Shown here one piece after another: positions 7,158-48,406 of a stretch of DNA of 64,000 nt. Below the pieces are notes generated by a model. It did not search any database. It saw only the letters and a list, made by a program, of their open reading frames with translations, and had not been told where the DNA came from. This DNA is from an archaeon (GTDB taxonomy: Archaea > Nanobdellota > Nanobdellia > Woesearchaeales > JAADFO01), in the NCBI GenBank assembly GCA_043817075.1, contig JBDRHG010000023.1, forward strand, positions 11,315 to 75,314, given 5' to 3'. The position numbers and the translations under genes are program-made. Position 1 is the stretch's first letter, and every line of letters starts with the position of its first letter.

Positions 7158-7372
7158 TGTCTTAGCAGTATAGAAACACCATTTAAATAGTTAACGAAAA
7201 GGTATATTGGTATAGGATAATCTGGTCATGTTGGGTTGCGTAAGCAATCTTTAGGTTGTTTTTGCAATCGGTGTGGTGTTCTTTTATATTCTGCTGTCAG
7301 AAGGATTCGAATTAAGTTACTATTTTAGGGTGGTAAAATATCGAAACATTTATATGCTCGGTCTCCCTTAAG

Positions 7373-8056
7373 ATGCATATGCCTCAGCCCCGCTTCGCTA
7401 GGATTGGACTTTTCCATCATGATTGCTGGCATTCGAAGGTGATCAGCCGTTTCGGCGTCCTGGTCAGTGAGCTCAACCATCGTCTCGAGACCAGACAGGG
7501 CGATGTCAACAAGGTCACCGGTATGTTCACGATCGACGGTCCAAAGGCCGAGGTGCAACGAGCGCTGTCTTATGTACGCCGTCGGCCAAATATGCTCTCT
7601 TATACCCCCATCTCCATCGGTAAGACCAAGGCGTTTTCCGTCACCTGGAAAGCGAATAAGACTGCATTTGACTATGTCTTCGACGCCGGCTGCATCTATG
7701 CGTCCAAAGTGTATACTCGGGAGGGCTTCGAGGCCTTCGACGTCCTCACACCTGATCTCAATCGTGTGCGCAAGGAGATCGCGGATTCGCATGACGTCGG
7801 TCAGTTCCGTCTGTTCTCGGCGACCGACTCGATGTCTGATTTCTCTTCTCTCACCGAGGCCCAGCGCGAAGCAGTGGTGAGCGCCTATCAGCAGGGCTAT
7901 TATTCCTGGCCCCGAAAGAAGAATCTGGACGATGTCGCGACAGGCGCAGGCAAGAAACGTTCCGCATTCCACGAGACGCTGCGTAGGGCAGAGTCCAAGC
8001 TCATCCCGCGGGCGGTCGAGCAGATGCTGCGGGATCAGACCGACCCCAACGCATAG
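7373..8056 (+). CDS. HTH_10 (bacterio-opsin activator-type) DNA-binding regulator
   Basis: C-terminal LTEAQREAVVSAYQQGYYSWPRKKNLDDVATGAGKKRSAFHETLRRAESKL is the classic archaeal HTH_10 motif. An ATTTATAT box at 7348-7355 favours a leaderless start at ATG 7373 or 7379. Confidence 0.7.
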   Translation: MHMPQPRFARIGLFHHDCWHSKVISRFGVLVSELNHRLETRQGDVNKVTGMFTIDGPKAEVQRALSYVRRRPNMLSYTPISIGKTKAFSVTWKANKTAFDYVFDAGCIYASKVYTREGFEAFDVLTPDLNRVRKEIADSHDVGQFRLFSATDSMSDFSSLTEAQREAVVSAYQQGYYSWPRKKNLDDVATGAGKKRSAFHETLRRAESKLIPRAVEQMLRDQTDPNA

Positions 8057-25004: not shown

Positions 25005-25046
25005 TTTAGGATAATAACTTAGGTCTTTATTAAATTATGTGATATG

Positions 25047-26057
25047 TAGTCGCCGACAAAAGTAAATTATAAATACTAGTTCTTCTCTTTTGTGGTTTAT
25101 GATATCCATCCAAGAACGCGAGTTAATAGTGAAATTACATCGACAAGGGAAGAAGCAGGAGTATATTGCTAATTTGATTGGTTGTAGTCAACCAACTGTA
25201 CACAACTGGATTCGCCGCGCGGAGCGTGGGCGAAGCCTTAAGACGTTGCCACGGAGTGGCAGGCCGACAAAACTAACCGATAAGAATCTGTCGCTGCTCA
25301 AGCAGCGAATTCTTGGACGAGTGAAGTCGGCGAATGAAGCGTTTTGTTCTGTTAGCACCAAGCAACTTGGTGAGCTTATTCGTCAGGAAATCGGCGAAAC
25401 ATACAGCATGCGTCATGTCGAACGTGTTATGCACAAGCTTGGATTCAGCCTCATAAAACCTCGATCACAACACTTGCGTCACGACCAAGAAAAAGTGGAT
25501 GCTTTTCGTGATGAATTTAAAAAAAACTCGTACAAGAATATGTGGACTATGAACTCGTCGCCATCGATGAGGTGAGCTTTCAGCTCACCACCAATTACAA
25601 ACGAATATGGTTTCCCAAGGGACAACGCCCACGAGGAGCATTCTTTTGGAGCAACAAAAAACTCATCACGTTTGCTGCATTAACCAGTAATCACGAGTTC
25701 TACTATGACTTTTATGACGTCCAGAACAGCTTGACGTTTCGCCATTTCTTGCGAAATTTGTTTGCTTGGCTTGACCCAAGCAAAAAATATATTCTCATCC
25801 TCGACAATGCAGGATGGCATAAAACACAAGTCGTCAAACAATTATACGATGAACAAGACTCCTGGATCAAAGTGGAATTCATCCCGCCATACAGCCCAGA
25901 ACTCAACCCCATTGAAACAAACTGGAAAGTCACGAGAAATGCCGTGACTAAGTCACAGCATTTCACAACTATCAACGACATGCAAAAAGCACTAGAAAAC
26001 TTCTGGACAACACATATTTTCACACAGAACTTTATAACTTATTTATGTCGTTGACTA
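25047..26057 (+). mobile_element. IS630/Tc1-mariner family insertion sequence (~1.0 kb)
   Basis: Imperfect 27-bp terminal inverted repeats, TAGTCGCCGACAAAAGTAAATTATAAA (25047-25073) versus the reverse complement of 26031-26057 (22/27 identical). TA dinucleotides at both tips. The transposase is encoded in two frames. Confidence 0.8.
25090..26054 (+). CDS. IS630-family transposase, orfA (25090..25575) plus orfB (25542..26054), joined by a -1 frameshift
   Basis: orfA has an HTH (CSQPTVHNWIRRAERG). orfB has DDE_3 motifs (LDNAGWHKT, PPYSPELNPIE). The slippery A AAA AAC lies within an A8 run at 25519-25526. A -1 slip there reads ...EFKKKLVQEYVDYELVAIDE... Confidence 0.8.
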
Positions 26058-33109: not shown

Positions 33110-33165
33110 TACAATAGTTATTGTCAGTTCGTTACGAAAATCGATAAAAAAAGCGGTGATTGTTG

Positions 33166-33738
33166 ATGATGTCCAAGAAGGCAGAAAAATCTCTCCAAAT
33201 GATATTCGGGCTCTTCATCCTTCTCATCATCTCTCTGGTGGTGCTGAGCCTTTTCTTCAAGTTCACTGAGAAATCCAGTTCGTCCATGGCCACGGCTTCG
33301 GACGAGTGGTTCTCCAAAGCGGCGATCGACAATGCCCAACAGGAATGTGAGGTGTTGTGCGAGAACATCAAGGATGTCAACACCGGCATCGAGTTCTGCA
33401 AACGGTATATGCGGATAGACTTCACTGGTGACAACCTCTTGGAGGATATGTACTCCTATGGTCAATGGGATATCTGTGAAGACAAGGTGCCGTGCTTCGT
33501 GCTCGTCGACAACTGCAAAGGTGGGACGTATGACGGCAACAAATGTCATGATCTGCTCGTTTCCCGACGGAATGACGCATACATAGCTCTCATCAATGAG
33601 ATGGACGTCGGGCAGGCTGATGCTGATGAAGGCACCTGTGGACTTGATGACGAGGATATCGCCATCACCAACAACTGGAAGATCAAGTTCGATTTCCTAG
33701 GTGGTGCCCTAATCGATCCGTATGCACCGATTCCCTAA
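33166..33738 (+). CDS. Cluster protein A: prepilin-like N-terminus, Cys-containing extracellular domain
   Basis: MMSKKAEKSLQMIFGLFILLIISLVVLSLFF (basic segment then hydrophobic helix). The ORF-track start at 33160 is TTG, and I prefer ATG 33166. SD-like GGTGAT upstream. Confidence 0.65.
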   Translation: MMSKKAEKSLQMIFGLFILLIISLVVLSLFFKFTEKSSSSMATASDEWFSKAAIDNAQQECEVLCENIKDVNTGIEFCKRYMRIDFTGDNLLEDMYSYGQWDICEDKVPCFVLVDNCKGGTYDGNKCHDLLVSRRNDAYIALINEMDVGQADADEGTCGLDDEDIAITNNWKIKFDFLGGALIDPYAPIP

Positions 33739-33753
33739 TTTTTTTTTCTTCTT

Positions 33754-35667
33754 ATGATTCCATCAAAACGGGCGGCGACCGTCATCAACATCGTGCTTCT
33801 TATCGCAGTCCTCGTCGTGTCCATCATCGTCATGTTCTCCCTGCAGAAGATATTCAACTGGCAGGCCCGCGCTGTCGAGACCGACACCGCATCCGCTATC
33901 GTCGAGATGATCCAGATCGAGATCGAGCGCGTGCTGCAGAAACGTGAGGACACGGATTTCTCCATCAGCATCCCTTACGCCGTAGACTACAAGGCCAACA
34001 TCTCACAGGGCAAGATCACCATGGAGTTCTTGGAGTCCGACATATCGGTCAAGAAGAATTTCATCATCCCCAACAGCCACGTGCTGCCGAGCGAATTCGA
34101 GAGCGCGGGCACGGTCCATATCTACAAGTTCGGCCGCACCATCCTCGTCACCAACAATCTCACCTGTGAGCCGCTCGACCAGCGATGCGATCCTGGCTGC
34201 GCGGTGTTAGGGATATGCGATCGGCAGTGCTACCGGGACAATACCGTCGACTTCGTGTGCAACCAGATATGCATCGACACCAATAATGACGGCAAGTCGG
34301 ACGGCAGGGATGCCGACGGCATCTGCGACCCCGACTGCTATGACAACGAAAAAGGCGGATTCTATTTCGACATCGATTGCATGCGGACAGACGACGGCAT
34401 CTGCGATCCTGACACCCATAATGTGCGGGATGGATTCTGCGACACCGATTGCGCCGGCACGAACGGCGTATGCGATGTGGACTGCACCGCTATCCTCGGC
34501 GCCTTCGATGCGGACTGCACCCATCGTCGCAACGGGGCATGCGAGACGCAGCTCGGCGAGAACTGCCTGTTCTATCCCGAGGATTGCGATTGCGGAGCCG
34601 GGCGGGCATGCAAGTACGGCTGCGCAAAGGACCCGCCCTATACCTTCGACCCGGATGGATGGGGTTGCGTGCCGGCGGCCGAGAATGTAGGCACCGGTCT
34701 GGAATGCGCTTCGTCCTGCCAATGCGGAGGGGACGACCGTTGCGACCATACCGGCCATTGCTGTCCTGAAGAGACATATTTCAACGGTGCAACGTGCGTG
34801 AGGTACGACAGCGACGGTACCTGCACTACGGATGATCCCTTGTTCCCGGCAGAGACCTGCCTGACGTCAACGATGGATTGCCTCTGCGCGACCGATCCGG
34901 ATAATCCGGTCTGCTGTCCAGGCGCAATCACCGGGACAAAGGACGGATGCGCACCGAAGATCGACGAAGGTGCATCGGCGGAGCCTTGTTGGTGCGACGG
35001 ACAATGCTCGGGCCAGGACAAATGTAAGAACAACCATTGTTGCGGTCCTGGATATATCTGGGATGACGTTGCCGGCGTTTGTGTGCTTGATCCAAGCGGC
35101 TGCGAGATACCTGAGCAGGCTCAGTTCCCTGGATGCAATTGTCAGAAGATGCCGAGCCTCTGTAGCGGTGGGCAGGTATGCTGTGCCTCAGGTCCGAACC
35201 TCAACGAGGATACCCTATGCTCCGACGGTTCCGGCAATAAGGGTACTGGTGAGGGTTGTGATTGCGGCACCGAGTGTTCGTCAGGCATCTGCTCACCTAT
35301 CCCCCGATATTCCCGTTGCGTGCCAACTCGTTGGTACCATTGCCGCGGGAGCGATTGCCAGCTGGAGTTCGTAGAGGACGTAACGATCAACATCGCGGAT
35401 CCCACGGCGTTCGGCCTCAACTGTGATGACCACAATACCTTGGACAATTTCGTGAGGAATGCCGCGGGCTATGAGGAGACCGATCCGATGACTGGTGCCG
35501 TCACACGGCCATACTCTGCGCTCGACGCTTGTCTCCCACTGAGTGACGGCATCATCTGCAATATCCAGAACACTGGTGGGGATATCTGCTATGCGACCCA
35601 AGGCAATCCTCTGAACCACTGGGAGCGTCATTTCCCCAATGATTGGGAGGTCAACTATTGGGATTAG
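33754..35667 (+). CDS. Cluster protein B: N-terminally anchored, extremely cysteine-rich surface protein (637 aa)
   Basis: N-terminal KRAATVINIVLLIAVLVVSIIVMF. About 62 Cys by my count. Repeated DG(I/V)CD(P/V/T)DC units and four C.C...C....CC(P/G) units. Confidence 0.75.
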   Translation: MIPSKRAATVINIVLLIAVLVVSIIVMFSLQKIFNWQARAVETDTASAIVEMIQIEIERVLQKREDTDFSISIPYAVDYKANISQGKITMEFLESDISVKKNFIIPNSHVLPSEFESAGTVHIYKFGRTILVTNNLTCEPLDQRCDPGCAVLGICDRQCYRDNTVDFVCNQICIDTNNDGKSDGRDADGICDPDCYDNEKGGFYFDIDCMRTDDGICDPDTHNVRDGFCDTDCAGTNGVCDVDCTAILGAFDADCTHRRNGACETQLGENCLFYPEDCDCGAGRACKYGCAKDPPYTFDPDGWGCVPAAENVGTGLECASSCQCGGDDRCDHTGHCCPEETYFNGATCVRYDSDGTCTTDDPLFPAETCLTSTMDCLCATDPDNPVCCPGAITGTKDGCAPKIDEGASAEPCWCDGQCSGQDKCKNNHCCGPGYIWDDVAGVCVLDPSGCEIPEQAQFPGCNCQKMPSLCSGGQVCCASGPNLNEDTLCSDGSGNKGTGEGCDCGTECSSGICSPIPRYSRCVPTRWYHCRGSDCQLEFVEDVTINIADPTAFGLNCDDHNTLDNFVRNAAGYEETDPMTGAVTRPYSALDACLPLSDGIICNIQNTGGDICYATQGNPLNHWERHFPNDWEVNYWD

Positions 35668-35676
35668 TGAGCACTC

Positions 35677-36270
35677 ATGAGACACACCCTCCTTTTGCTC
35701 GGAAGCTTTCTCATCCTCATCGCTACGGTCCACGCTCTCGGTTTCTGTGGGGACAACGATTGCGGTGGCACAGAATCATACTATTCTTGTCCGGATGATT
35801 GTCCGGAATCCGGCTGGGACCAGTCATGCAATCCTTCCAGGAATGGCGATTGCGATCCCGATTGCCGCGAGCGCGATCCTGACTGCAGGGAGTATCTCAT
35901 CGAGTCGGGCGCCATCCAGAAGGAAGAGCTCCCGCCATCCATGAGGCCGCCGAGCATCCAACGCGTGGTGTTATTCCTGCTCATGTTCACCATGATGGGT
36001 GTCTTTCTCTTCATCGTGGTGCATAAGATCAGGCACAAGGGACGGACGGAAGGCAGCCCTCGTCAGCCTGTGCAACCGCCGCCGTCTCAGCCACCTCTGC
36101 AGCAGATCGAGCAGCAGTACGTCCAGCAATACGCACAGCAGTATGCACGGCAATATTCTCAGAACCAGGCTGGACAATACAATAATCGACCGCAACCTCA
36201 GCAGCAACCTTTTCAACCGCCCCCTCAACAGCCCCAACGACCCCAACAGCAATGGAGGCAGAACCCATGA
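35677..36270 (+). CDS. Cluster protein C: signal peptide, CGDxxCG...CPDDC Cys module, TM helix, Q/P/Y-rich tail
   Basis: MRHTLLLLGSFLILIATVHA signal. FCGDNDCGGTESYYSCPDDC...GDCDPDCRERDPDC. TM VVLFLLMFTMMGVFLFIVV. Tail QQIEQQYVQQYAQQYARQYSQNQ...PQQQPFQPPPQQPQRPQQQ. Confidence 0.7.
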   Translation: MRHTLLLLGSFLILIATVHALGFCGDNDCGGTESYYSCPDDCPESGWDQSCNPSRNGDCDPDCRERDPDCREYLIESGAIQKEELPPSMRPPSIQRVVLFLLMFTMMGVFLFIVVHKIRHKGRTEGSPRQPVQPPPSQPPLQQIEQQYVQQYAQQYARQYSQNQAGQYNNRPQPQQQPFQPPPQQPQRPQQQWRQNP

Positions 36271-37028
36271 TCTGGACCAAGAAGGGTTCGACGTCGCTGA
36301 CCACCAAGACGCTCTACGCGGTCTTCCTCGTCATCTTCCTCTCTTTCATCGCGTTTACCGTGGTCAACTCCAGGTCGTCGGTCCTGTCACAGAAAGAATT
36401 CTTCGATTCCCATAGGCATGTCGACAATTTCTTCGCCGCGCTCCTGACCAGTCCCTGTACTGTCCAGGAGCATTATCCTGTCATCGATGGCCGGACGAGC
36501 GACCGAAACTACCAGATCGAGACCGAGGGCTATCTCATGGTGGACAAGCTGACCTATCTCGACAAGGAGAACAAGGACATCTATTGCGTCGACAGCTACC
36601 ATTTCCTCTATACGGTCATCATCGAGGACCTCATGAACAAGAAGGAATGGGTGTTGGGGCTCCGTGGTGAGCCGAACTGGGCCTATGGCGACCAGGGGAC
36701 GCATGTGATCTCCCGGTCTTACCCGGTCGCGCTCAACTATAATTTCGCTGAGATCCATCCTGGATATGCCACCATATATGCCTATGTCGGAGACATCCCG
36801 CGGCTGTACGGCACCATCAAGATGGCCTGCGTCGCCCGTGATCAGCGGTCATTGTCGCTCGATCTGCCAGTGGATATCAAGTTCACGACCGAATATGGGG
36901 AATTCTGCATAGGCGCGGAATGCTTCTTCGCTTTCTTTCCCTGCAGGGTGAAGGAATTCTCCATCCCTGCTGGAGAAAGGCTCGTTCTCATCACACCGAA
37001 GGATGACGGCGTCGAGGTGATGGTCTGA
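36267..37028 (+). CDS. Cluster protein D: prepilin-like N-terminus
   Basis: MIWTKKGSTSLTTKTLYAVFLVIFLSFIAF. I chose ATG 36267, which forms an ATGA overlap with the stop of protein C and has GGAGG 8 nt upstream. Confidence 0.7.
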   Translation: MIWTKKGSTSLTTKTLYAVFLVIFLSFIAFTVVNSRSSVLSQKEFFDSHRHVDNFFAALLTSPCTVQEHYPVIDGRTSDRNYQIETEGYLMVDKLTYLDKENKDIYCVDSYHFLYTVIIEDLMNKKEWVLGLRGEPNWAYGDQGTHVISRSYPVALNYNFAEIHPGYATIYAYVGDIPRLYGTIKMACVARDQRSLSLDLPVDIKFTTEYGEFCIGAECFFAFFPCRVKEFSIPAGERLVLITPKDDGVEVMV

Positions 37029-37516
37029 TGAAGAAGGCCCAGATGCAAGAATTCATAGGTATCGTCCTCCTGATCCTCGCACTCGTCATGTTCGTCATGT
37101 TCGATCGCGTCAGCTCGACGGATTCAGCCCTCTCGAGGGCTGAGAGTATAGCGGAAGGGCGTGGAAGAGGGAATATCTGGGCAGGAGCCAATATCATGCT
37201 CTATTCCACGTTGGAGGGTGTCATGCTCATCAATCTGCTTGGAGACCATGTCTGCAAGAATGTGACCGAGGTGACTTATGGTAGGAATAGAAACATTAAT
37301 ATATCCAATTTTCTCATGACGGTATTAACTGCCTATTACGGGGAAGGACACTGGTCTTTCGAGCTCCGCTCGGTGAACGGGACCAAGTGCTATAATCCTG
37401 GGCTCTTCCATCGCTCATGCGCCTTCCCCGACGAGCTCGATTACAGGGCATACGACATTACACATCCAATGCCCTGCACAAGAAGCTTTGGAGAGGGGAC
37501 GCTCTATGTCTATTAA
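37028..37516 (+). CDS. Cluster protein E: prepilin-like N-terminus
   Basis: MKKAQMQEFIGIVLLILALVMFVMF. Its ATG overlaps the preceding stop (TGATG). Confidence 0.7.
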   Translation: MKKAQMQEFIGIVLLILALVMFVMFDRVSSTDSALSRAESIAEGRGRGNIWAGANIMLYSTLEGVMLINLLGDHVCKNVTEVTYGRNRNINISNFLMTVLTAYYGEGHWSFELRSVNGTKCYNPGLFHRSCAFPDELDYRAYDITHPMPCTRSFGEGTLYVY

Positions 37517-39371
37517 AAAAAGAGGACAGATGTTTACCTTGATTTTCTTTATTGCCATCATCATCGGCATATTCGTGCTGGTGCAATACACACGACAGGA
37601 CTACGAGGTCCAGTTGCAGGACGGTCAGACGGCTGAAGAAGCCGCCCGTCTCGTGCTGGATTCTGTGATCAACGCTCTCAAGGGCGAGGTCACTGCCGTG
37701 TTGCGGGACTCGGCTGAGCAGGCCGTGTTCGATTCGGCTGCCGCAGCCATCGATGCTGAGAACGGTTATCTCGTATCGTATGGTCTGAGCTCTATGCCTC
37801 CTTTGGCTGAGGCCAAGGACAACCTTGAGGCGCGCACGCTCGATTATTGCAATGCGTGGTTGTCTGACCTCAACGGCAAGGAGCTCAACGGCGCGGTGAT
37901 CGAATCCGAGGGGACGCTCTCACAGATCACTGTATGGGTCGACGAGCTCGACCTGGTGAGCGGCGACCGTGACGAGGCCTTCAATATCAGCGGAGAGGCA
38001 GCGACCGGTCCCATCATCGCGGTGGAGCCGTCGGTCGTCGAGATGAATGTGGATGATGAGTTCACCTTCGACATCACGTTGAACAATGTGGAAGGCGCCA
38101 ACGTCGCATTCTATGTGCTCACCTATGATCCTGCCAAGCTGCAGATCGTCAACCCTGCTCTGGACATATCGGAAGGATTGTTCTTCAAGGAAGCCGGTTC
38201 GACCACCACTTTTACCCCTTATAGTGAAGCGGTGGGTAAATATGAGATCCTGCTCGCCATGATGGATGAGACCTCCGGAGCTTCCGGCAAGGGCAACATC
38301 ACCACCATCAAGTTCAAGGCGCTCGAGCTGGGTGAGACCTACATCACCATCGAGTCCGGCAGGGTCGGCCTCAACACGGACCAGGTCTTCAACACGGAAG
38401 ACAATTCGCTCAGCGTCAACAGGGCCCAAGTCGTCATCAAGGACGGCGAGCTCGCCGATCCGGTCTATCCCAAATACGGTGAGGCAGGCAAGCTGACCAG
38501 CAGTTTCGAGATCACCTCTGGCAACGGTCAGGGTCTCAGAGAGGAAGTGGAAGTCCCCTACTCCTTCACCACCCAAGTCCAGGGTCTTCGCTATTGGTAT
38601 GTGTATCGACACCTGTACGGATGGGTCCAGCAGGACGTCATCTCTGAGAAGACCTGCGCCCACATGCCTATCGTCAAGGGCAATGCCTCCAATGAGCCGG
38701 ACAATCCGACTCCTGGATGGCTCGAATGCTATGCGCCCGGCATGACCGACGAAGTGGTCGATACGATCGTCGACGAGAGCATGGCTGATCTCATGGCAAG
38801 AATGGACGGCGACGTCCAATGCACTTGGGACATCCCCTGCAGGTTCGTCGAGACTGAATTCATCTGGAAGGATCCTTGCGAAGGCGAGGATGTCGACTAC
38901 GCCACATGCGTGGGTTGGCCTTGCCAGGCCTACGAATCGAATGACAGCTGCTTTGCCGGCGGTTGCAGGACTGATGAGAACTGTGAGGCCTATGGAGATT
39001 ATGGTAGTCCGGGTTGCCAGGACCCCAAACCGATTAACTACACTGGTCAATACGTGAGGAAGACCGGGACACCGGTCATCGCCAATAACTACCATCCCTC
39101 GGGATCGATCACGTATTCGGAGAAGCACCATATCCGTTTCCTCGTCGATGTCCAATGCGTCGACAGGGCCAGTGTGGACACCAATCTGGGTGAGTTGACC
39201 TGGGATTTCAAGCTGCATGTGTCCATGGACAGAGGCGATGAGCCTGACGATCCGCCATGCCCCTGCGAAATCGGTGGCGGCGGTGGCGGTGGTACTGCGC
39301 CTGAGCCTGAAGACCCAGATAATGATAACAGCGACAACACGCAGTCAAAGACCAAGACTACAACCAATTAG
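37506..39371 (+). CDS. Cluster protein F: prepilin-like N-terminus plus cohesin-like module
   Basis: MSIKKRGQMFTLIFFIAIIIGIFVLV (ATG 37506; the ORF-track start 37488 is TTG). The segment IIAVEPSVVEMNVDDEFTFDITLNNVEGANVAFYVLTYDPAKLQIV...GKGNITTIKFKALELGETYITIESGRV follows the cohesin pattern. C-terminal Cys-rich part and a G7 tract. Confidence 0.7.
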   Translation: MSIKKRGQMFTLIFFIAIIIGIFVLVQYTRQDYEVQLQDGQTAEEAARLVLDSVINALKGEVTAVLRDSAEQAVFDSAAAAIDAENGYLVSYGLSSMPPLAEAKDNLEARTLDYCNAWLSDLNGKELNGAVIESEGTLSQITVWVDELDLVSGDRDEAFNISGEAATGPIIAVEPSVVEMNVDDEFTFDITLNNVEGANVAFYVLTYDPAKLQIVNPALDISEGLFFKEAGSTTTFTPYSEAVGKYEILLAMMDETSGASGKGNITTIKFKALELGETYITIESGRVGLNTDQVFNTEDNSLSVNRAQVVIKDGELADPVYPKYGEAGKLTSSFEITSGNGQGLREEVEVPYSFTTQVQGLRYWYVYRHLYGWVQQDVISEKTCAHMPIVKGNASNEPDNPTPGWLECYAPGMTDEVVDTIVDESMADLMARMDGDVQCTWDIPCRFVETEFIWKDPCEGEDVDYATCVGWPCQAYESNDSCFAGGCRTDENCEAYGDYGSPGCQDPKPINYTGQYVRKTGTPVIANNYHPSGSITYSEKHHIRFLVDVQCVDRASVDTNLGELTWDFKLHVSMDRGDEPDDPPCPCEIGGGGGGGTAPEPEDPDNDNSDNTQSKTKTTTN

Positions 39372-39420
39372 GCCCTCAGGGCCATTTTTTATCTTTCTTT
39401 TCCTTCTCTCTTTTTGCAAA

Positions 39421-39430
39421 CCTTTAAATA
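39421..39430 (+). promoter_or_regulatory. Putative internal TATA box (CCTTTAAATA) before the FlaJ/TadC-like gene
   Basis: Lies in the 83-nt gap after protein F, which also holds T-rich runs (CCATTTTTTATCTTTCTTTTCC). Centred ~29 nt upstream of ATG 39455. Confidence 0.4.
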
Positions 39431-39454
39431 GCCACCTTGCGGGAAAACAGTCAG

Positions 39455-41620
39455 ATGGTCGACGGTTACGGTAACATCTCGGACATCGAAAAAGAGGTGG
39501 CGGCAAAGCTCCGGTCCATGGAGACCGATGGGACCAACGAGCTCGATATCTTCTCTGGCTCATACAAAGAGTTCAAGGAGGAGGAGCGAAAGGAGTATGC
39601 CCTAAATACCTTCTTCGAGCGCTACTGCAAGTTCGCTTCTGGCTACCTCAACTTCTTCAAGCTCAAGGACAAGACCAAAGAGGAGATGCAAGAGAGCATC
39701 GACATCGCCGGATTCACCCGCATCACACCTGAGGATGTGTTGGCATCGAGCGTGTTCACCTTGATCGCAGGACTCTTCCTGGCGTTGCCCTTCTTCATCA
39801 TGTCTTTCCGAGACTTCTCCTATTTCCTTGTCGCCAGCGGCATGTTCATGGCATATGCCGGATTCTCCTATCCCGCTTTCTTCGCCCAGATCACCAAGAT
39901 GAAGGCGCAAGAGGAATCGATCCTGGCCATCCTCTACATCACTATCTACATGCGGGTCAGTCCGGTGTTGGAGAACGGCATGTATTTCGCCATCCAGCAT
40001 CTCAACGGGCCTTTGGGCAAGGACATCAAGGCCATGCTCTGGATGCTGGACATGGGAAAAGCGTCTTCTGTGGAGACTGCCATGAAGCCTTTCATGGACT
40101 TATGGATCAAGCGTAATCCCGACTTCGTCAAGGCCTTCTTGACCCTTCACTCTGTTCTCGACCAGGACAGCGAAGCGGAGCGCGAGAAGATCCTGGAGAA
40201 GTCGTTGCACACCATCCTGGACAACACCTTCATCAAGATGAAGCACTATTCGCATGACCTCAAGACGCCGGTACTGCTGCTGCACACCTTCGGGATGATG
40301 CTGCCGCTGATCGGACTCATCGCTTTCCCCATGGTCAGCGTGTTCATGTCCGACTCCATCAGGATCGAATACCTCTTCTTCGGCTACATCGTGGTGCTGC
40401 CATTATTGCTCTTCTTCCTGACCAAGCGCATCCTTGCCAAACGTCCGGGCGCGTTCTCCTTTCCAGACCTCAAGGAGAATCCCTATCTCCCTCCTGAAGG
40501 GATGTACATGCTCACCTTCAACAACAAGCGGTACTATATCCCTGTGTTCAGGGTCGCGATCGCCATCGGCATCATCATCATGCTGCCTGGGATCGCTTGG
40601 GTGATCACCCACACCATCCCGGAGACCATGATGGTCATGCAGCAGGCCGCCGACGTAGGTATGCAGGGCGTCGGCCAGATAGCAGCAGAAGGCGAATACA
40701 CATTCGTCGCGATGATGTTCACTCTGCTCATCCCGCTCGGGCTCGCGCTCACGTTCTCCATATACTTCTACTTCCGAAGCATCCAACGGCTAAGGGTGAG
40801 GAATTCCATCGTAGAGATCGAAGAGGACCTCGATGAGGCGCTGTTCCAGCTCGGCCAACAGTTCACTGACGAGGTGCCCATAGAGATTGGACTGCAGAAC
40901 TATATCCGAGACGCTCAGATGCTCAACCTCAAGCAACGTAGCATCTTCCATTTCTTCAAGCTGACCATGGACCGTATCCAGGAAGAGGGGGTGACGTTCT
41001 CCAACGCCGTGTTCGACAAGACCAATGGCATCATCATCCGATACCCGTCGATCCTGATGCAGGAGATCATGTGGATCGTGGTGGAGGGCACCAAGAAAGG
41101 CGCCAAGACGCTGTACACAATCATGACCAAGATCAGCGTCTACCTCAACAACACCAAGAAGATCAAAGAGCTCATCTACGACCTGCTCACCGAGACCGTA
41201 TCCTCCATCAATGTCCAGGCGAAGTTCTTCTCGCCCTTCCTGTCCGCCATCGTAGGAAGCCTTACGTTCATCATCGTCCAGGTGCTCTGGCAGATGGCGA
41301 AACGGTTGGAGAACATCATGAAGATCCTCAACTTCGGGTCGGGAGACGACACGTCGTTCTTCTCCGACCTCATCAACTTCACCCGCATCATCCCGCCCAC
41401 TGTCTTCCAGATATTGGTCGGCATCTATCTCGTCGAGACCGTGATGCTGCTCTCTGTGCTCGCCAGCGGAGTGGAGAGCGGATTCGACAAGGTGAATAGG
41501 GACGTGACCATTGGGAAGAACCTATTGTATGCCATCATCACCTATATGGTGCTCACCATCATGGGCATCATCGCACTGCAGGGACTCATAGAGAGCGGCA
41601 TCGCATCGACAGGAGCGTGA
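39455..41620 (+). CDS. Cluster protein G: polytopic membrane protein, FlaJ/TadC/T2SS-F-like platform (tentative)
   Basis: 721 aa from ATG 39455 (the ORF-track start 39437 is TTG). It contains two copies of a soluble helical segment followed by TM helices. The segments GPLGKDIKAMLWMLDMGKASSVETAMKPF and EEDLDEALFQLGQQFTDEVPIEIGLQNYI resemble the T2SS-F repeat. This is assigned by pattern only. Confidence 0.5.
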   Translation: MVDGYGNISDIEKEVAAKLRSMETDGTNELDIFSGSYKEFKEEERKEYALNTFFERYCKFASGYLNFFKLKDKTKEEMQESIDIAGFTRITPEDVLASSVFTLIAGLFLALPFFIMSFRDFSYFLVASGMFMAYAGFSYPAFFAQITKMKAQEESILAILYITIYMRVSPVLENGMYFAIQHLNGPLGKDIKAMLWMLDMGKASSVETAMKPFMDLWIKRNPDFVKAFLTLHSVLDQDSEAEREKILEKSLHTILDNTFIKMKHYSHDLKTPVLLLHTFGMMLPLIGLIAFPMVSVFMSDSIRIEYLFFGYIVVLPLLLFFLTKRILAKRPGAFSFPDLKENPYLPPEGMYMLTFNNKRYYIPVFRVAIAIGIIIMLPGIAWVITHTIPETMMVMQQAADVGMQGVGQIAAEGEYTFVAMMFTLLIPLGLALTFSIYFYFRSIQRLRVRNSIVEIEEDLDEALFQLGQQFTDEVPIEIGLQNYIRDAQMLNLKQRSIFHFFKLTMDRIQEEGVTFSNAVFDKTNGIIIRYPSILMQEIMWIVVEGTKKGAKTLYTIMTKISVYLNNTKKIKELIYDLLTETVSSINVQAKFFSPFLSAIVGSLTFIIVQVLWQMAKRLENIMKILNFGSGDDTSFFSDLINFTRIIPPTVFQILVGIYLVETVMLLSVLASGVESGFDKVNRDVTIGKNLLYAIITYMVLTIMGIIALQGLIESGIASTGA

Positions 41621-41991
41621 AGAGAATCGAAACTGGAATATTCAGGTACGGCATGATCCTTCTCGGCTTCATCATGGCCGGGCTCCTGATAGCATTCGCC
41701 CTCAAGGCGTCCTACACCATCGACATCGACATCGACCATCGGGAACAGCATGTCGAGGGCGACTCTGAGACGATCATTACGGTGATACCTAAGTTGTGTG
41801 ATGCCTGCATGAGCAAGAGAGATGTGGACAGGGACTGCTATCTCCTGTACGCGACCATCACCGACGGTCAGATAACGGCTGATGATCTCAGTATATACAA
41901 TATGGAAGACCTCGATGTGCCCGGGGCCGGAAATTATATATTCAAGATACAATCAGAAGAGAACAACTGCACGGTGAGGCAAATTGGCTAG
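41617..41991 (+). CDS. Cluster protein H: small prepilin-like protein
   Basis: GTG start in a GTGA overlap with the stop of G. (V)KRIETGIFRYGMILLGFIMAGLLIAFAL. Its C-terminal Cys pattern is related to I/J/L. Confidence 0.55.
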   Translation: MKRIETGIFRYGMILLGFIMAGLLIAFALKASYTIDIDIDHREQHVEGDSETIITVIPKLCDACMSKRDVDRDCYLLYATITDGQITADDLSIYNMEDLDVPGAGNYIFKIQSEENNCTVRQIG

Positions 41992-42931
41992 GAAAAGACG
42001 CAACAAGAAGGAAGGAGACATCGCGATCAACACCATCTTCGTCATATTCGTCGCGGCGATCAGCATCCTGTTGCTCATCGCGCTGTTCGCAGGCAAACTG
42101 CCGACGTTCGCCAAGACCATCTATTGCAAGACCTTCTTCCGCATCCAGTCATCGACGTATTTCCCTGAAGCCATCCGCGTGGACACCGATTTCTGCGCCT
42201 CGGAAGGGCGTATGGGAAGCCATTACATTTTCAAGCAGGAAGATGTGCTGCGGGAATTCTCTGACGGGCAACAGGTGTTCAGGCACCAAGGAAGTGGTGT
42301 GGATGGTTATCTTTCAGCTCCGTTGACCGTTCCGAACAGCGAGATCCTCGACGCGACCGCTGAGGTGGTGGTTCTGGAATCGATCGGATTGGGTGATCCA
42401 GTCACCCTCAGCTTCAACGTGGGGGACCGCACAATCCCACCACGTTCTATCCTAGCATTCCCTGTGAACGAACCTATACGGGTGAACTTCGCCACTTTCC
42501 TCGAAACAGCCATGGCTGCATGCACAGGTCCTGAATGCGAGTTCGACCTAAATTTCTGGTATGGATCAACCAATCCAGCATATGGGATCCGTTACGCGGT
42601 CCAGAATCTTGAGATCACCTATGAGCGCTGCTTCGTAAAGGAGGAAATCATCGCGGGTATGTTGGCCTGCTATGAGAAGGCCTCCTACGGCGAGCGCAGA
42701 ACGAGCCTCATCTGCGACGAGCTCACGCTCGATCCTAGCTGTGAGGAAAGCTATCCGATCACAGATGCTACGGTGGCGACGACGCTTTGGGAGAACGGTC
42801 TCTGCGAGGTCCTCACGAATGGCGATGTTTGTCTCGGGGACAATGTGGATTTCGAGCTGGACGAGGTCACGAAACGCACCAATGTCCTGATTGAATATAT
42901 AGGCGATACGCGCCATATCCGGGTGAGCTAA
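41984..42931 (+). CDS. Cluster protein I: prepilin-like N-terminus plus shared C-terminal module
   Basis: TTG start with GGTGAGG 5 nt upstream and no in-frame ATG before the TM. ARKRRNKKEGDIAINTIFVIFVAAISILLLIALF. Ends ...TNVLIEYIGDTRHIRVS. Confidence 0.65.
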   Translation: MARKRRNKKEGDIAINTIFVIFVAAISILLLIALFAGKLPTFAKTIYCKTFFRIQSSTYFPEAIRVDTDFCASEGRMGSHYIFKQEDVLREFSDGQQVFRHQGSGVDGYLSAPLTVPNSEILDATAEVVVLESIGLGDPVTLSFNVGDRTIPPRSILAFPVNEPIRVNFATFLETAMAACTGPECEFDLNFWYGSTNPAYGIRYAVQNLEITYERCFVKEEIIAGMLACYEKASYGERRTSLICDELTLDPSCEESYPITDATVATTLWENGLCEVLTNGDVCLGDNVDFELDEVTKRTNVLIEYIGDTRHIRVS

Positions 42932-42947
42932 GATCAAGAAAGGAGAC

Positions 42948-45005
42948 ATGTCCATACAATTCATCGCGGCGATACTCATCACTATAGTCGGCATCACCTT
43001 AGCGCTAGGGAGCGGGCTCCGCTACATGAGCTCAGACAATGTCTACTGCGACACCTATTACAAGGTCAAGGGCGGCCTCTGGGCCAACAAGCGAGATGTG
43101 AACTGCGCACAGAACGTCAGGCTCGGCATCTTGAGCATCGAGATGCTCCAGGAACAGCAGAAACTCTTCGCCTCCAATGTCCCGGAAATGTCGTTCGATT
43201 TCCGGGAGGCCGATTCTTACACGTTCGACTTCTCTGTCCCTGGAGGTTCACTCATCACCGAGGCGGTGATAGGCATCGAGCTGCAGAAGGCGAAGATACA
43301 GAACTTCTCCACACCCAATGTCAACAATGTGCCCAGCGACATCCTCAACTTCCCCCGTGAAGGCGGGGAGCGGACCATGACAGTACGGGTACCGAAAGAT
43401 GCCCATATCACCAATGCCAAGATGCGGCTGACCGGCGTCGATATCCCTGGCATGGCAGACATCGTGTTCATCATCGACACCTCCGGAAGCATGACCGATG
43501 AATGGGCCTCGGTCTGCACCGCTATCGGAGAAGTGGCCGAAGCAGTAAGTGAGACCACAGACCTCGTGGTATGGGTCTATTCCCTTGCCGATAACGGCAA
43601 GAACTGTCCGCTGATAGACGGTATCCAGATGCATAATGCGGATCTTGACCAGAACCTTCTTGGAAGATATTGGGGTGAATGGTGTATAGGAGGCAACCCT
43701 GATTGCGTGTTCGTCAACATACCAGAATATGTGGAAGACATGGTTCCCCATGACCTATACAAGGAGGCCTGGGGGATAGGGACTTATTACATCATCCGGC
43801 AGCGACCTGGTCTGCGGGATAATTCCAAGATCATCCTCGTCCCCGTCTCGGACTCTGATCCGACGGGTGGTGGCGCATTGGATGACTATCTGTTGATCAC
43901 TGATTCTTGGCAAGGTATAGGTCCTTGGGGTCCGGAGGGAATCTTCCGAGGAACAGAGCAACGCGTCATCGACATGATCAGAGGGGATCCTCCTACCATC
44001 ACAGGAGTCCTGACTCCATACGATTATATCTTTCCTGTCTATGGGAATCTCGTCAACCGCAACAAGCCTGAGCCGGATCCCTATGAAGGCTATGAGGTGG
44101 GTTATTCGCGGGCTGACTGTTTCGCATCGCATCCGCGTTGTGCCCAGGTGCTCACCTGGATGGATCAGTTGGCCGATGCGTCTGGGGGAACGGTCAGCGG
44201 GTATACCGACACTGCTTTGCTCATCCAGGCTGTGCAGACCGCCATCAACACGTCTTACCCTGAGGATCTCCGAGGTGATATCGATGGCTTCGAATTCTTC
44301 TTCCATGCCGACGAGCTCAACCGGACCAATTCACCCATCTTCGCTGAGTTCTGGAAACAGCTGGATTTAGCCCTTGATGTTTGCATACCCGACGGGAATG
44401 GCTGGTGCGACCTTGAGATCACTTTCTACTCCTCGAACGAGGGGAGTCTTGCCATCGATAGTCTCATCATAGAATACGTGCTTCCTATCGATGAGGTGAC
44501 CGTCCGTCTTAACGGAGTCGATTTCCGTGCTGGACCGATAGGTGTCGATGATGAGGTATTCGTCGACTTCACGGACCTTCTCCGGAGGATGATCAATGAG
44601 ACCTGCGATGTGAGAGAGTGTCCGGTGGAGCTTTCTATCCGGACGACTAACTACGAATCCCTTCTCAAGGTCACAGACCTTTCTGTTGACTACGATCTCT
44701 ACCTGTTGGAGGAGACCTTGGTTTCACGTATCTTCGACTGCTGGGACAAGGCGTCCCGTGGTCAGTCCCGCAAAGACATCCTGTGTGAGGAGTTCGTCGT
44801 GCCGCATGACTACAAATTCATCGAGCCCATCACCGAGGCGAGGCTGACATCCATCATCCTAGACAGGAACAGCTGTCATATCATCCCAAACGAGCCGCAT
44901 GGTTGCGGTCGAGGGGATACTTTTGACATGACGAAAGATATAAATAGCGTCACCAACATTTTGATAGAATACGACACCGACGCAAAACGCATCATCGTAA
45001 GCTGA
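42948..45005 (+). CDS. Cluster protein J: N-terminal anchor, vWA (MIDAS) domain, shared C-terminal module
   Basis: MSIQFIAAILITIVGITLALG. MIDAS motif DIVFIIDTSGSMTDEW. Ends ...TNILIEYDTDAKRIIVS. AAGGAGA Shine-Dalgarno upstream. Confidence 0.75.
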   Translation: MSIQFIAAILITIVGITLALGSGLRYMSSDNVYCDTYYKVKGGLWANKRDVNCAQNVRLGILSIEMLQEQQKLFASNVPEMSFDFREADSYTFDFSVPGGSLITEAVIGIELQKAKIQNFSTPNVNNVPSDILNFPREGGERTMTVRVPKDAHITNAKMRLTGVDIPGMADIVFIIDTSGSMTDEWASVCTAIGEVAEAVSETTDLVVWVYSLADNGKNCPLIDGIQMHNADLDQNLLGRYWGEWCIGGNPDCVFVNIPEYVEDMVPHDLYKEAWGIGTYYIIRQRPGLRDNSKIILVPVSDSDPTGGGALDDYLLITDSWQGIGPWGPEGIFRGTEQRVIDMIRGDPPTITGVLTPYDYIFPVYGNLVNRNKPEPDPYEGYEVGYSRADCFASHPRCAQVLTWMDQLADASGGTVSGYTDTALLIQAVQTAINTSYPEDLRGDIDGFEFFFHADELNRTNSPIFAEFWKQLDLALDVCIPDGNGWCDLEITFYSSNEGSLAIDSLIIEYVLPIDEVTVRLNGVDFRAGPIGVDDEVFVDFTDLLRRMINETCDVRECPVELSIRTTNYESLLKVTDLSVDYDLYLLEETLVSRIFDCWDKASRGQSRKDILCEEFVVPHDYKFIEPITEARLTSIILDRNSCHIIPNEPHGCGRGDTFDMTKDINSVTNILIEYDTDAKRIIVS

Positions 45006-45008
45006 AAA

Positions 45009-45524
45009 ATGACATTCGTGGTCACGAACAACAAGGTCTTCAAGGAGTTCAATACCTTGAAGGGTGCTGTCGCATTCCTCGAGAAATCCAACGAATTCGG
45101 GCTGCGTATCGCCGAGCGTGACGCATTCGGCAACCTTGCCGACGTCGACGAGAGCGCAGTCGCTGAGGTGCGTGAGGAGGTCAAGGCCCAGATCATGGCC
45201 GCGCAAGAGGCCGAGGAGATAGAGGGTGTGGTCAGTCCGCCGAAAACCATTCCGGCGGCAACAGGCACAGCAGCGGTCGGGGTGACAGGAACAGCTCCAG
45301 GACAACCTGTCCCTCAGACAGGAGCCGCTGCTTCGACCGCTGTACCTGCATCCACAAAACCTGTTCCAGAGAAGCAGGAAGAGAAGACGCCCGTGGACAA
45401 GCCTACGCTCTTCATCAAACTCGGAGCCTTGGCCGTGATCGGTACCATATTGGTCGTGGTGTTCCTCCGTATCGTGCTTCCTATCATCATCGATTTCATG
45501 CGGACATGGAGGTCGATCCCATGA
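45009..45524 (+). CDS. Cluster protein K: small soluble N-domain, P/T/A-rich linker, C-terminal TM (tail-anchored)
   Basis: MTFVVTNNKVFKEFNTLKGAVAFLEK...; linker PAATGTAAVGVTGTAPGQPVPQTGAAAS; TM LGALAVIGTILVVVFLRIVLPIII. Confidence 0.6.
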   Translation: MTFVVTNNKVFKEFNTLKGAVAFLEKSNEFGLRIAERDAFGNLADVDESAVAEVREEVKAQIMAAQEAEEIEGVVSPPKTIPAATGTAAVGVTGTAPGQPVPQTGAAASTAVPASTKPVPEKQEEKTPVDKPTLFIKLGALAVIGTILVVVFLRIVLPIIIDFMRTWRSIP

Positions 45525-45985
45525 CAGCAAAAAGAGGAAACCTGGGTATAAACTACATCTTCGCTATATTCGTCTCGCTCATCGTCGTGTTCGTCATCAT
45601 CGCCTTGGTGTCGAACTGGGCCTTCGACGCCAACAAGCTCTTCGCCAAGATCTTCCCCAGCGAAGACGACAGCAACCTCCTGGACCGGCAGATCATCGAA
45701 GTCCCTCCCGCTGACTGCGACCGGCTTGAGAGCGAAGTGGCAAAGCACGGTAAGATATGCTACACCAAGGCCCGTCAGGGCAAGGTCGAGGGAACGGACT
45801 GGGCGTTGTGCTATGGTATCGTCAGCGATTGCCCCGCTTCCGCTGGACAGACCTATGCGGGAGTCGAGACGCTCTTGGGTGACACCCTCGCAACGGATGA
45901 GATGGACATCCAGAGCACGGGTCGCCTCTCCAACAATGTCCTCGTAGGCTATGATTATAGCGAGAAACGGGTCACGATCAGTTAG
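45521..45985 (+). CDS. Cluster protein L: prepilin-like N-terminus plus shared C-terminal module
   Basis: ATG 45521 in an ATGA overlap with the stop of K and GGAGG 8 nt upstream. MTAKRGNLGINYIFAIFVSLIVVFVIIAL. Ends ...NNVLVGYDYSEKRVTIS. Confidence 0.65.
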   Translation: MTAKRGNLGINYIFAIFVSLIVVFVIIALVSNWAFDANKLFAKIFPSEDDSNLLDRQIIEVPPADCDRLESEVAKHGKICYTKARQGKVEGTDWALCYGIVSDCPASAGQTYAGVETLLGDTLATDEMDIQSTGRLSNNVLVGYDYSEKRVTIS

Positions 45986-46498
45986 GTGGTATCTATCGAC
46001 AAGAAAGGCACGGAATCGGTCGAAGTGTGGATGTGGGTCATCGCAGGCATGGTGATAGGCAGCCTTATCTTCGTCGGCGGCTTCAAGCTGCTCACCAACT
46101 ATGTGCAGTCCGCCGAGAGCAACCAGGCGAATGAGAACGTCAATATGCTCTACTCCATGATTACCCAAGTCTGTTTCGGTGGTCGCGGGGAACGTGAGAT
46201 CGATTCGTTGCGTTTCCCGTCCATGATCGAGAAGATCTATATTGAGGACGAAGAGGGTATCGAGAACTTAGGGAAGAACCTCTGCTACGATCCTGTCGAC
46301 GACACACCGAATTGCATGGACCTCAAGGCCTGCACTGTCATGATGAACTCCATCTCCACCAAGGAGAAGCGAGGCGTGTTCTATGCGGTGGAGAAGTTCC
46401 TCGGCAAGCGACGTCCGCAGCAGTTCCGCTTCAGGGTACAGAAGAAGAGCGTAGATGTCGTCGAGGTCAATTGGACCCGGGAACTGCTCAAGGACTGA
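45986..46498 (+). CDS. Cluster protein M: prepilin-like N-terminus
   Basis: GTG start immediately after the stop of L. (V)VSIDKKGTESVEVWMWVIAGMVIGSLIFVGGF. Confidence 0.6.
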   Translation: MVSIDKKGTESVEVWMWVIAGMVIGSLIFVGGFKLLTNYVQSAESNQANENVNMLYSMITQVCFGGRGEREIDSLRFPSMIEKIYIEDEEGIENLGKNLCYDPVDDTPNCMDLKACTVMMNSISTKEKRGVFYAVEKFLGKRRPQQFRFRVQKKSVDVVEVNWTRELLKD

Positions 46499-46501: not shown

Positions 46502-48406
46502 TCACAGTTGCTGAAGCGGCCTAGAATTGATGTAAGAGTAGATGCGCACCATCTTGATCTTCGGTGGCTTCTTGTCCTTCTTGTTCTCCTTGCAGGTCTT
46601 CATCGCTTGCGCGATCCCTGCCTGGAGGTCGGTGCCGTCATAATAGAATGCCTCAGGCCTCGATCCATGCTCATCGAAGAACTCTTCCCAGAACATGAGC
46701 TGGGTTTTGGGTGCGACGATGATGCCACGATCGATAGGGATGTCTAAGGTGGCATTCTTCTCGAACCGTTTGGCGTCCTTGAGCAGGGCGTCATAGTTCT
46801 CCCTGATCTCTTTTATCGTGCTGACGAATTCTTCCATGGTCATGCGCTGCATCTCTTCGAGGTAGTCCTTCTCGCTCTTGTTGTCTGGGTCATCGAAGAA
46901 CATCTTCTGGTCCCGGAAGAAGAGGTGGTTGGACAACGAAGTGAAGAACCGCTGTTCTGTGAGGAATTTGACGATGTCGAAGGAGAGCTTGTTGGCGACG
47001 TTGAACGTGCCTGACTCCTCCTTGATCCACCGTTTCGTGAAATCATCCTCGATGTGGTGCTTCGCGGTCACATCCCATTTGATCTCGAACCGGCTATTGA
47101 GCTTCTTCGCGTCCTCGAACCAGCGCTTGAATGTGAAACGGATGTTCCGGATCAGCTCGCCGCAATGCCGTCTGGTCTGCTCGACCTCCTTGATGAATGC
47201 GCTCTGGTCCGGCGCGCGGTCGAAGATGAGGAGATCGCCTGTGGTGAAATCTTCTATCTGGAAATAGCGCCCTTTCATGACGCTCTCCACCGGGAAGAGG
47301 ATGCATACCGCGTTCTTCGGATCTATCTTGGTCCTGTCGACGGTATTGATCCGGTAGGGGATGCATGCGAGATCGTCGTGATGGGAACCGATGACAAGCT
47401 CCTTCTTGTTGACCCTCCCTGTCTCTTTCGAGATCATGCCTTTTCTGATGATGGCTTTCATCTCGTTCGGATTGGCAGGATACGTCGCGTAGTTGCCTGA
47501 TGGGAAAGTCAGGACGGGCAAGATGAATTGGTGGAGGAACCATTTGGACCGCTTGGTGTTCTCCTGTTCCTGGTCCTCGAGCCAGTATACCTGGCGGATG
47601 CGTTCGTCCTCTTCTGCTAACTGGAGTTTGTGGTAGTATTCGCGAACGACGTCCAGCACCTGGGTCTTCTCTTTCTGTACGCTCTCGGATAACGCTGCTA
47701 TCCTCTGATGGATGGCTGTGCTGTTCCTCTTCGCTTTGGCCGGGTCAGTGATGAGACTTTTTATGATGGAGAGATCGGTCTCCTGCGATCCTACGATGCC
47801 GTCCAGTGGTTGGAGGCCGAGGAGAAGCTGAGACAATGCGGTCATGGTCTCGCCGTCCACTTCGATGATCTTGTCGAGGCGTTTTTCCACCTCCTGGATG
47901 CCGGCGACGCCTTTGCCGATGAAGGTCTCGAGGCCGATGGCGTCCTGTTGGTCCTTGGGCAGCATCTTCTTCATCGCGGAGATGACCTGCTCTGCGTGCT
48001 TGTCGTTCTTAATCTCCATCTTCTCTAGCGTCGTTCCTTCCTGGCCTTCTTTGACCAGGCTCTGGATCTTGGTGCGGAACCTCGTTGCGGTATCCTTGAT
48101 GCGGGAATTCAGGTTGGATATCGCGGTGAGGCAATCCTTGGCCCTGCGGAGATCATCTTCGGTGGGACTGGGGTCCTGGAGTGCCTGGGCAAGTCCTGCG
48201 AGAGACTTGGCCTTGGCCTGCTCGATGCTCGCGCAGCCGTCCTTTCCTAGGACCTCTTTGGAGAATGAGTTGATATCGAGGAGATGCTGGCGGTCGACCT
48301 TTGTCGAAACCTGTTCATCCTGTTCTCTGGCGGCCTCCTGATCCTCATCTTTGAGAAGCTCGTGGACCCACTGAGGGATCTTCTCTTTAGGCATACAGGT
48401 CGTCAA
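46502..48406 (-). CDS. Hypothetical protein (634 aa, soluble, coiled-coil-rich N-half)
   Basis: Long ORF convergent with the cluster, with stop codons 3 nt apart. I can see no P-loop or other catalytic motif. The start may be M5 (48394), given a TTTTTTATAC box. Confidence 0.6.
   Translation of the reverse strand: MTTCMPKEKIPQWVHELLKDEDQEAAREQDEQVSTKVDRQHLLDINSFSKEVLGKDGCASIEQAKAKSLAGLAQALQDPSPTEDDLRRAKDCLTAISNLNSRIKDTATRFRTKIQSLVKEGQEGTTLEKMEIKNDKHAEQVISAMKKMLPKDQQDAIGLETFIGKGVAGIQEVEKRLDKIIEVDGETMTALSQLLLGLQPLDGIVGSQETDLSIIKSLITDPAKAKRNSTAIHQRIAALSESVQKEKTQVLDVVREYYHKLQLAEEDERIRQVYWLEDQEQENTKRSKWFLHQFILPVLTFPSGNYATYPANPNEMKAIIRKGMISKETGRVNKKELVIGSHHDDLACIPYRINTVDRTKIDPKNAVCILFPVESVMKGRYFQIEDFTTGDLLIFDRAPDQSAFIKEVEQTRRHCGELIRNIRFTFKRWFEDAKKLNSRFEIKWDVTAKHHIEDDFTKRWIKEESGTFNVANKLSFDIVKFLTEQRFFTSLSNHLFFRDQKMFFDDPDNKSEKDYLEEMQRMTMEEFVSTIKEIRENYDALLKDAKRFEKNATLDIPIDRGIIVAPKTQLMFWEEFFDEHGSRPEAFYYDGTDLQAGIAQAMKTCKENKKDKKPPKIKMVRIYSYINSRPLQQL

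Follow-up and report, generated by a model that had tools for sequence, protein, structure and literature searches.

Attachment to other cells is the presumed way of life of DPANN archaea such as the Woesearchaeota, and the molecules that make this contact are largely unknown. The locus described here raises the question of what is shared by a group of adjacent membrane proteins, and whether they could be subunits of a filament or of a tip complex. It lies in a 64,000-nt stretch of DNA (hereafter the window: assembly GCA_043817075.1, contig JBDRHG010000023.1, positions 11,315 to 75,314 of the forward strand) from an ultra-small, uncultured archaeon of the Woesearchaeales (JAADFO01), and it comprises five tightly packed genes, H, I, J, K and L, which the list of open reading frames (ORFs) places in one direction (Table 1). 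The original prediction, made from the letters of this DNA, held that I, J and L, and more weakly H, end in a paralogous module, that a second unit occurs once in I and twice in J, and that these proteins form a locus-specific family built by duplication, as do filament or tip-complex subunits. From the evidence presented below, we lean slightly towards the view that I, J, L and their relatives are a rare archaeal family of minor pilin-like subunits, the core of which would be an N-terminal helix and a C-terminal module, with adhesion domains inserted between them.

All the peptides quoted in the original prediction were found in the ORFs at their proper positions. I and J are homologous (BLASTP E 3e-15, 24% identity over 281 columns). 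Their last ~100 residues align with one gap of a single residue, in agreement with the C-terminal alignment that had been noticed, and a second BLASTP segment (E 6e-4) covers the N-terminal ~140 residues, so that I and J have both ends in common. The claim that L keeps the core of the module was confirmed at the profile level only. The pairwise BLASTP comparison of L with I and J matched the transmembrane (TM) helix (1e-5) and a 29-residue tail that was not significant (E 0.041), which is why the case of L was judged on profiles. The I and J module profile matched the L family with hhalign at 85-93% (E 4e-7 to 7e-6) over 77-85 columns reaching both C-termini, and this match was stable with module profiles of 9 or 88 sequences and L profiles of 5, 8 or 17. 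Its score of 39.8 compares with at most 18.8 (median 10.5) in 148 valid column shuffles (2 of the 150 shuffles, with hhalign scores of ~130 over 5-12 columns, were set aside after inspection as a program artefact). The reversed L profile reached 0.06% against the module, and the control families M, K, D and E stayed at or below 0.3%. These profiles point to L as the carrier of a diverged C-terminal module, and the alignment statistics are significant for all of I, J and L, for the last by profile.

H did not hold its place in the family. It gave nothing by BLASTP against I and J, and hhalign remained at ≤0.6% against the module and at 1% against the short S family (the small proteins of the minimal loci described below); H was consequently dropped as a module carrier, together with the claim that it weakly keeps the module. 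K is without the module (hhalign 0.1%). M, encoded next to L (window 45986-46498), gave 0.2-0.3% against the module and 89% against the short S family, in an alignment that takes in the TM helix, which partly drives the score. The S proteins of three loci (L028-L030, in genomes G151, G411 and G264) start with ME(V/T)xE, like M (MESVE); possibly M has the module in a strongly diverged form. The S family itself showed no match to L (hhalign 0.5-1.6%).

The module is an undescribed, rare and lineage-restricted domain. When 1.84 billion representative proteins were searched exhaustively with HMMER (E ≤1e-3), 89 matched, 71 of them at E ≤1e-10. In these 89 representatives the matched region reaches the C-terminus or stops a few residues short of it, and [VIL]S closes 66 of 91 family sequences. 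The word-indexed homologue searches gave 2 and 4 matches only. Among 401 sampled genomes of the phylum, 22 have a match. In about 13 of these the match is strong, with 2-3 copies per genome, and almost all belong to the order of the window. The searches for related loci yielded five metagenome loci with a narrower alignment and one locus among genome contigs, and none was found in the viral contigs searched. One genome of the same family, and the source of one L homologue, are labelled Candidatus Woesearchaeota. The duplication proposed originally therefore stands (the module is common to I, J and L, and J has the second unit twice), but "locus-specific" does not, since the family is lineage-wide, though rare. 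Identity with a known, widespread domain was rejected as well: the module matched nothing in Pfam and NCBIfam, its best match by sequence profile in the PDB was azurin (E 0.74), and Foldseek was also negative.

The family members differ mainly in what lies between their two ends. The short proteins (168-209 residues) comprise the leader, the helix, a YCxT motif and the module; the I-like proteins (260-335 residues) have a β-sandwich added; and the J-like proteins (620-770 residues) have a putative vWA/MIDAS region and two units added. The constant parts are the ~70 residues at the N-terminus and the ~100 at the C-terminus, and the N-terminal core of I is common to the short, I-like and J-like members, with Y47, C48 and C71 (I numbering) near-invariant in the family alignments. 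Proteins made of the two ends also occur in related loci, such as the 200-residue I' of genome G010 (N-terminal ~75 residues plus module) and the S proteins of the minimal loci (137-153 residues, helix plus module; hhalign 97%, E 4.5e-11 against the module). Besides L, the relatives encode between one and three module carriers of the I/J type.

The second unit, of ~55 residues with a Cys..Cys pair, is present once in I and twice in J, just as predicted, its copies resembling each other at 94-97% in hhalign: 96.5% (E 1e-9) between the two J units, 94% between the first J unit and the I unit, and 97% (E 3e-11) between the second J unit and the I unit, the three comparisons spanning E 1.5e-7 to 3e-11. 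A hidden Markov model of the unit, run on the representatives, detected a pair of copies in 19 of the 26 proteins of J length and a single copy in 14 of the 28 of I length; 24 of the 28 short proteins had none. The putative vWA region of J is diverged, the Pfam VWA match (E 0.011, 16.4 bits) being below the cut-off of 23.8 bits. The motif hhFhhDxSxSMxxEW is found in about 20 of 27 J-length representatives, with DTSGS in J, and the conserved SDSDP is also present in J.

The cysteines of the module covary in pairs across 88 module sequences. The C229/C244 pair (I numbering) is complete in 85 of them and absent from 2, with one cysteine only in 1; for C274/C283 the corresponding numbers are 81, 3 and 4; and for the optional C216/C253, which I has and J lacks, they are 33, 50 and 5. 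This covariation indicates disulfides in an extracellular fold and points to these three pairs as the bonded ones. The AlphaFold2 (AF2) model of I (13 sequences; predicted local distance difference test, pLDDT, 75.4; predicted template modelling score, pTM, 0.62) has an N-terminal helix with a kink (8-37 and 41-59) and a β-sandwich (~78-216), whose last β-α-β-β is the unit (E164-168, H170-177, E184-194, E201-216; E, strand; H, helix). The module follows as H218-232, E242-249, H261-270, H274-277, E288-290, E300-306 and E311-314. In the AF2 model of L (6 sequences, pLDDT 68), the N-terminal helix is followed by the same α-β-α-β-β order as in the module of I, with a short strand before it (E62-66, H68-90, E99-107, H117-125, E144-150, E155-158). 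Foldseek gave weak jelly-roll or CBM (carbohydrate-binding module)-type matches for the sandwich of I (BcsB, CBM6, MAM; E 2e-4 to 5e-3, TMq <0.3). For L its best E value was 0.76, with IF3-C-like β-α-β-α-β-β domains among the non-significant matches.

The N-terminal leaders fit archaeal class III signal peptides, with basic residues before the helix, [KR][GA], then D/E, and a hydrophobic helix of ~20 residues. Among the 71 TM-bearing representatives, [KR][GAS] is present in 60 and D/E at position +1 in 36. Examples, in which a slash marks the predicted cut, are KKEG/DIAINTIFVIF in I, KRG/NLGINYIF in L and KKG/DMSIQFIAAIL in J, and the same leader type is present on nearly all small proteins of the cluster. 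The leader of J requires an earlier start than the listed ATG. Between the preceding TGA stop and this ATG, the J frame (window 42924-42950) reads AKIKKGD, which fits the pilin-type leader consensus of the family, and the sole table-11 start in that stretch is ATC 42933, located 2 nt past the stop of I. Because the upstream codons match the leader consensus and no other table-11 start is available there, J probably starts at the non-canonical ATC 42933.

The surroundings of the module genes are conserved. H to L are the distal part of a plus-strand cluster of 13 genes (33160-46498). The metagenome loci L016-L018 keep the order D-E-F-G-H-I-J'-J-K-L-M, where J' (696-742 residues) is a third module carrier, without DxSxS, found between I and J in several metagenome loci and absent from the window. 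The G-H-I-J part recurs in L011 (same genus), L012 and L014 (same family) and L033, and L001 has H-I-K-L-M without J. Orthologues of H stand between G and I in L011, L012, L013, L016, L018 and L033. K is always found between J and L, and consists of a conserved N-terminal domain of ~60 residues, a variable acidic or Ala-Pro-rich linker and, in a tail-anchored topology, a TM helix at its C-terminus. The gene set is split in G010 (L013), which belongs to another family of the order, and a T2SSE ATPase of 772 residues (L013 5121-7439, Pfam 3.4e-14) adjoins I'-H-G there within ~1 kb. More distant genomes have minimal loci, with the order G, S, L-like and A-like (L029, L030) or ATPase-G-S (L028, in G151), the latter with an ATPase fragment homologous to the G010 ATPase adjoining G.

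A G-like polytopic gene is present in every module locus with enough context, which gives a positive answer to the co-occurrence test proposed originally; in the short pieces L026 and L027, no G lies within 5 kb. Identity to G is 46-63% in L012, L013, L016, L018 and L033 and 21-30% in the minimal loci, and we presume that G is the assembly platform. The genome of the window encodes a Peptidase_A24 protein (contig C5:66976-67977, E 9.6e-15). The same genome also contains two more type IV pilus-like loci, on contigs C9 (~300-7742) and C26 (~76200-86965), each with a T2SSE ATPase (484 and 539 residues, respectively), two half-size polytopic proteins and several pilin-leader ORFs.

Our interpretation is that the module forms the globular half of a pilin-like core, because the N-terminal ~70 and the C-terminal ~100 residues are constant and the short proteins have nothing else. 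By this reading, a leader and long hydrophobic helix (~70 residues) would be joined to a disulfide-stabilised module of ~100 residues, the short proteins of 140-210 residues would be this core alone and probably the ancestral form, and gene duplication would have led to larger paralogues with extra extracellular domains between helix and module. I would thus have gained one Cys-stapled jelly-roll/CBM-type β-sandwich unit, and J a vWA/MIDAS region and two units; we infer insertion into a short ancestor, not loss from a long one. The proteins would be inserted into the membrane N-in/C-out, and cut after [KR][GA] by the A24 prepilin peptidase of the genome; G, as the membrane platform, and a T2SSE-type ATPase would assemble them via the N-terminal helices. 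I and J, because they are bulky, would stand at the tip or the periphery as adhesins, the shared module providing the contacts among paralogues. The family probably carries adhesion domains on a pilus-like structure. More tentatively, and with a good deal of doubt, helix plus module might be a new "split" archaeal pilin fold with adhesion domains in its α-β loop, and I, J, J', L and possibly M might form a heteromeric tip complex, the host-attachment device of Woesearchaeales-type DPANN archaea.

The filament or tip-complex subunits imagined originally are thus consistent with the pilin leaders, the G-like neighbour, the T2SSE ATPase beside G in two relatives and the A24 peptidase, and they lack a match to a pilin fold. 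The following observations weigh against minor pilin-like subunits. First, the AF2 models were built on shallow alignments (13 rows for I and 6 for L), and with these two models Foldseek retrieved no pilin from the PDB. Second, neither Pfam nor NCBIfam gave a pilin or class III signal for H, I, J or L at E ≤0.1, and the match of M to T4SS_pilin (E 0.072) is below the cut-off, which leaves none of H to M with a pilin signature. Third, G does not match Pfam T2SSF significantly (one of nine members, at E 0.093), and could not be demonstrated to be a clear T2SSF protein. Fourth, a dedicated ATPase was not found beside the cluster in the window or in its own genome (90% complete), which encodes no close orthologue of the G010 ATPase (27% identity at best) and whose two T2SSE ATPases come with their own platform genes.

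These gaps, namely the missing ATPase, the missing pilin signature and fold match, and the insignificant likeness of G to T2SSF, would suit the main rival explanation. In that explanation, the proteins are membrane-anchored surface adhesins with an uncleaved signal anchor, not filament subunits, and the module docks a common partner (K, G, the S-layer or F, the cluster protein that bears a cohesin domain) in a static complex. The presence of a cohesin in the cluster and the position of the module at or near the C-terminus, with its recurrent [VIL]S ending, would also be in keeping with a docking end. However, the [KR][GA][DE] leaders are compatible with cutting by a prepilin peptidase, G has a T2SSE ATPase next to it in two relatives, and one leader type on nearly all small proteins of a cluster is typical of minor-pilin sets. 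We regard the static complex as rather unlikely, yet as the alternative that survives best.

It is less probable still, and in our view quite unlikely, that the module is itself a ligand-binding or enzymatic head, duplicated for several specificities, with the N-terminal parts serving as stalks. The module is indeed the best conserved part of otherwise fast-evolving proteins, and it has conserved polar residues (E246; E261, which is D in I; N279, D281, D286, N300 and E304). However, the binding heads of adhesin paralogues usually diverge fastest, while here the module is constant and the vWA and β-sandwich domains, which plausibly bind, are variable; the module also resembles no known binding or catalytic domain in Pfam, NCBIfam, the PDB or Foldseek. 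Lastly, the idea that L (and H) resembles the module by convergence or chance among small Cys-containing secreted proteins, I and J being the only true paralogues, would accommodate the insignificant pairwise BLASTP result for L outside the TM helix, the absence of L-like proteins from the results of the module profile search, the lack of a match between the S family and L and the failure of H in all tests, but it is very improbable in view of the end-to-end hhalign match of L, its stability with L profiles of 5 up to 17 sequences, its score far above the valid shuffles and the control families, and the agreement of the I and L models in secondary-structure order.

Table 1. Genes, domains and motifs of the module locus (positions are those of the window, unless another locus is named).
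Feature	Position	Strand	Description
Gene G	39437-41620	+	727 aa, polytopic, conserved neighbour
Gene H	41617-41991	+	124 aa, N-terminal TM helix
Gene I	41984-42931	+	ORF
I N-terminal core	41984-42196	+	Residues 1-71: leader KKEG/D, hydrophobic helix, extension with YCxT Cys48 and Cys71
I unit	42455-42622	+	Residues 158-213, β-α-β-β, CxxxxC pair
I C-terminal module	42623-42928	+	Residues 214-315, α-β-α-β-β, ends NVLIEY...IRVS
Gene J, as listed	42948-45005	+	685 aa from ATG 42948
Gene J, probable full extent	42933-45005	+	690 aa from ATC 42933
J MIDAS-type motif	43458-43493	+	DIVFIIDTSGSM, residues 171-182, putative diverged vWA domain
J unit 1	44313-44477	+	Residues 456-510; hhalign comparison with unit 2
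J unit 2	44532-44693	+	Residues 529-582; hhalign comparison with I unit
J C-terminal module	44694-45002	+	Residues 583-685; two core Cys pairs, without the optional third
Gene K	45009-45524	+	171 aa
Gene L	45506-45985	+	ORF
L diverged module (profile level)	45722-45982	+	Residues 73-159, CYTKAxQG...LCYG...VLVGYDY..RVTIS
J'	L016 6028-8256; L018 6220-8310; L015 62-2224		

The neighbours of the cluster include genes that, from their translations, we take to be the housekeeping archaeal genes for topoisomerase VI A and B and for DnaG. The cluster is abutted by an orphan protein of 634 residues (46502-48406, minus strand), which has a homologue in G010 (26% identity, E 3e-60); ORFs of similar size and with a similar C-terminus (…KPLQ…) adjoin the cluster in G001 and G002, and the orphan appears to be part of the conserved neighbourhood. 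Elsewhere in the window, a low-GC patch (0.38; 23775-26054) comprises a minus-strand ORF of 409 residues and two overlapping ORFs (25090-25575 and 25542-26054), which look like an IS630/Tc1-type helix-turn-helix/DDE transposase split by a frameshift.

The family is rare, undescribed and tied to a conserved surface cluster of 11-13 genes, and with its constant core and its interchangeable adhesion-type domains (vWA/MIDAS, CBM-like sandwich) it is a concrete, testable candidate for a DPANN attachment apparatus. The module can be defined as a family model (88 aligned sequences, motifs and three predicted disulfides), with which its genes could be annotated in metagenomes.

Several known systems bear comparison with it. 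Like the EpdA-E minor pilins of Methanococcus maripaludis and the multi-Cys type IV pilus components of Thermoproteales (PMC3875500, PMC4858521), I, J and L are clustered proteins of unknown fold with putative class III signal peptides, beside a presumed platform gene and with conserved cysteines expected to form disulfides. They differ in having no sequence relationship to those proteins, for which no C-terminal module common to short and very long paralogues has been reported. Among the TadG-type pseudopilins of bacterial Tad pili and the archaeal type IV pilus-linked vWA proteins (Makarova et al. 2016, PMC4858521), as is predicted for J, a vWA domain belongs to a protein that is pilin-like or associated with pili, and the locus also encodes a membrane protein of the TadC/FlaJ type. 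The archaeal ones (ArnB subfamily, arCOG02900) have no pilin leaders and partner MoxR/GvpN ATPases in a regulatory or cytoplasmic role, and the C-terminal module is not described in that study (PMC4858521).

The idea of pilin-like proteins with adhesion domains is already known in bacteria. In Streptococcus sanguinis, PilB (pilin plus vWA/MIDAS) and PilC (pilin plus a concanavalin-A-like lectin) are adhesins modelled at the pilus tip (PMC8179133, PMC9934059). I and J resemble them in joining a pilin-type N-terminus to bulky adhesion-type domains (the putative DxSxS vWA in J, the jelly-roll-like sandwich in I), in being paralogues, and predicted minor subunits, encoded side by side, and in a tip location expected on steric grounds. 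Unlike PilB and PilC, the I/J family is archaeal (DPANN) and has no IPR012902-type N-methylation motif, and there is no sequence or significant fold similarity between the two. The order of domains also differs: in PilB and PilC a functional module is grafted, after a short linker, behind a complete canonical pilin module, whereas in I and J the extra domains are flanked by the helix and the C-terminal module. The GspK-GspI-GspJ subunits of type II secretion, which are thought to form a heteromeric tip (PMC8179133), are likewise a set of related minor subunits of small and large size, and an extra domain sits within the pilin domain of the large one. They differ in having no detectable homology to the present family and inserted domains of another kind. 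Given the lack of a sequence or fold match and the different domain order, we do not claim membership in the PilB/PilC or GspK families. The insertion topology of I and J is nevertheless closer to that of GspK than to that of PilB and PilC, and among archaea the family would be a counterpart of the bacterial modular pilins, with a domain topology of its own.

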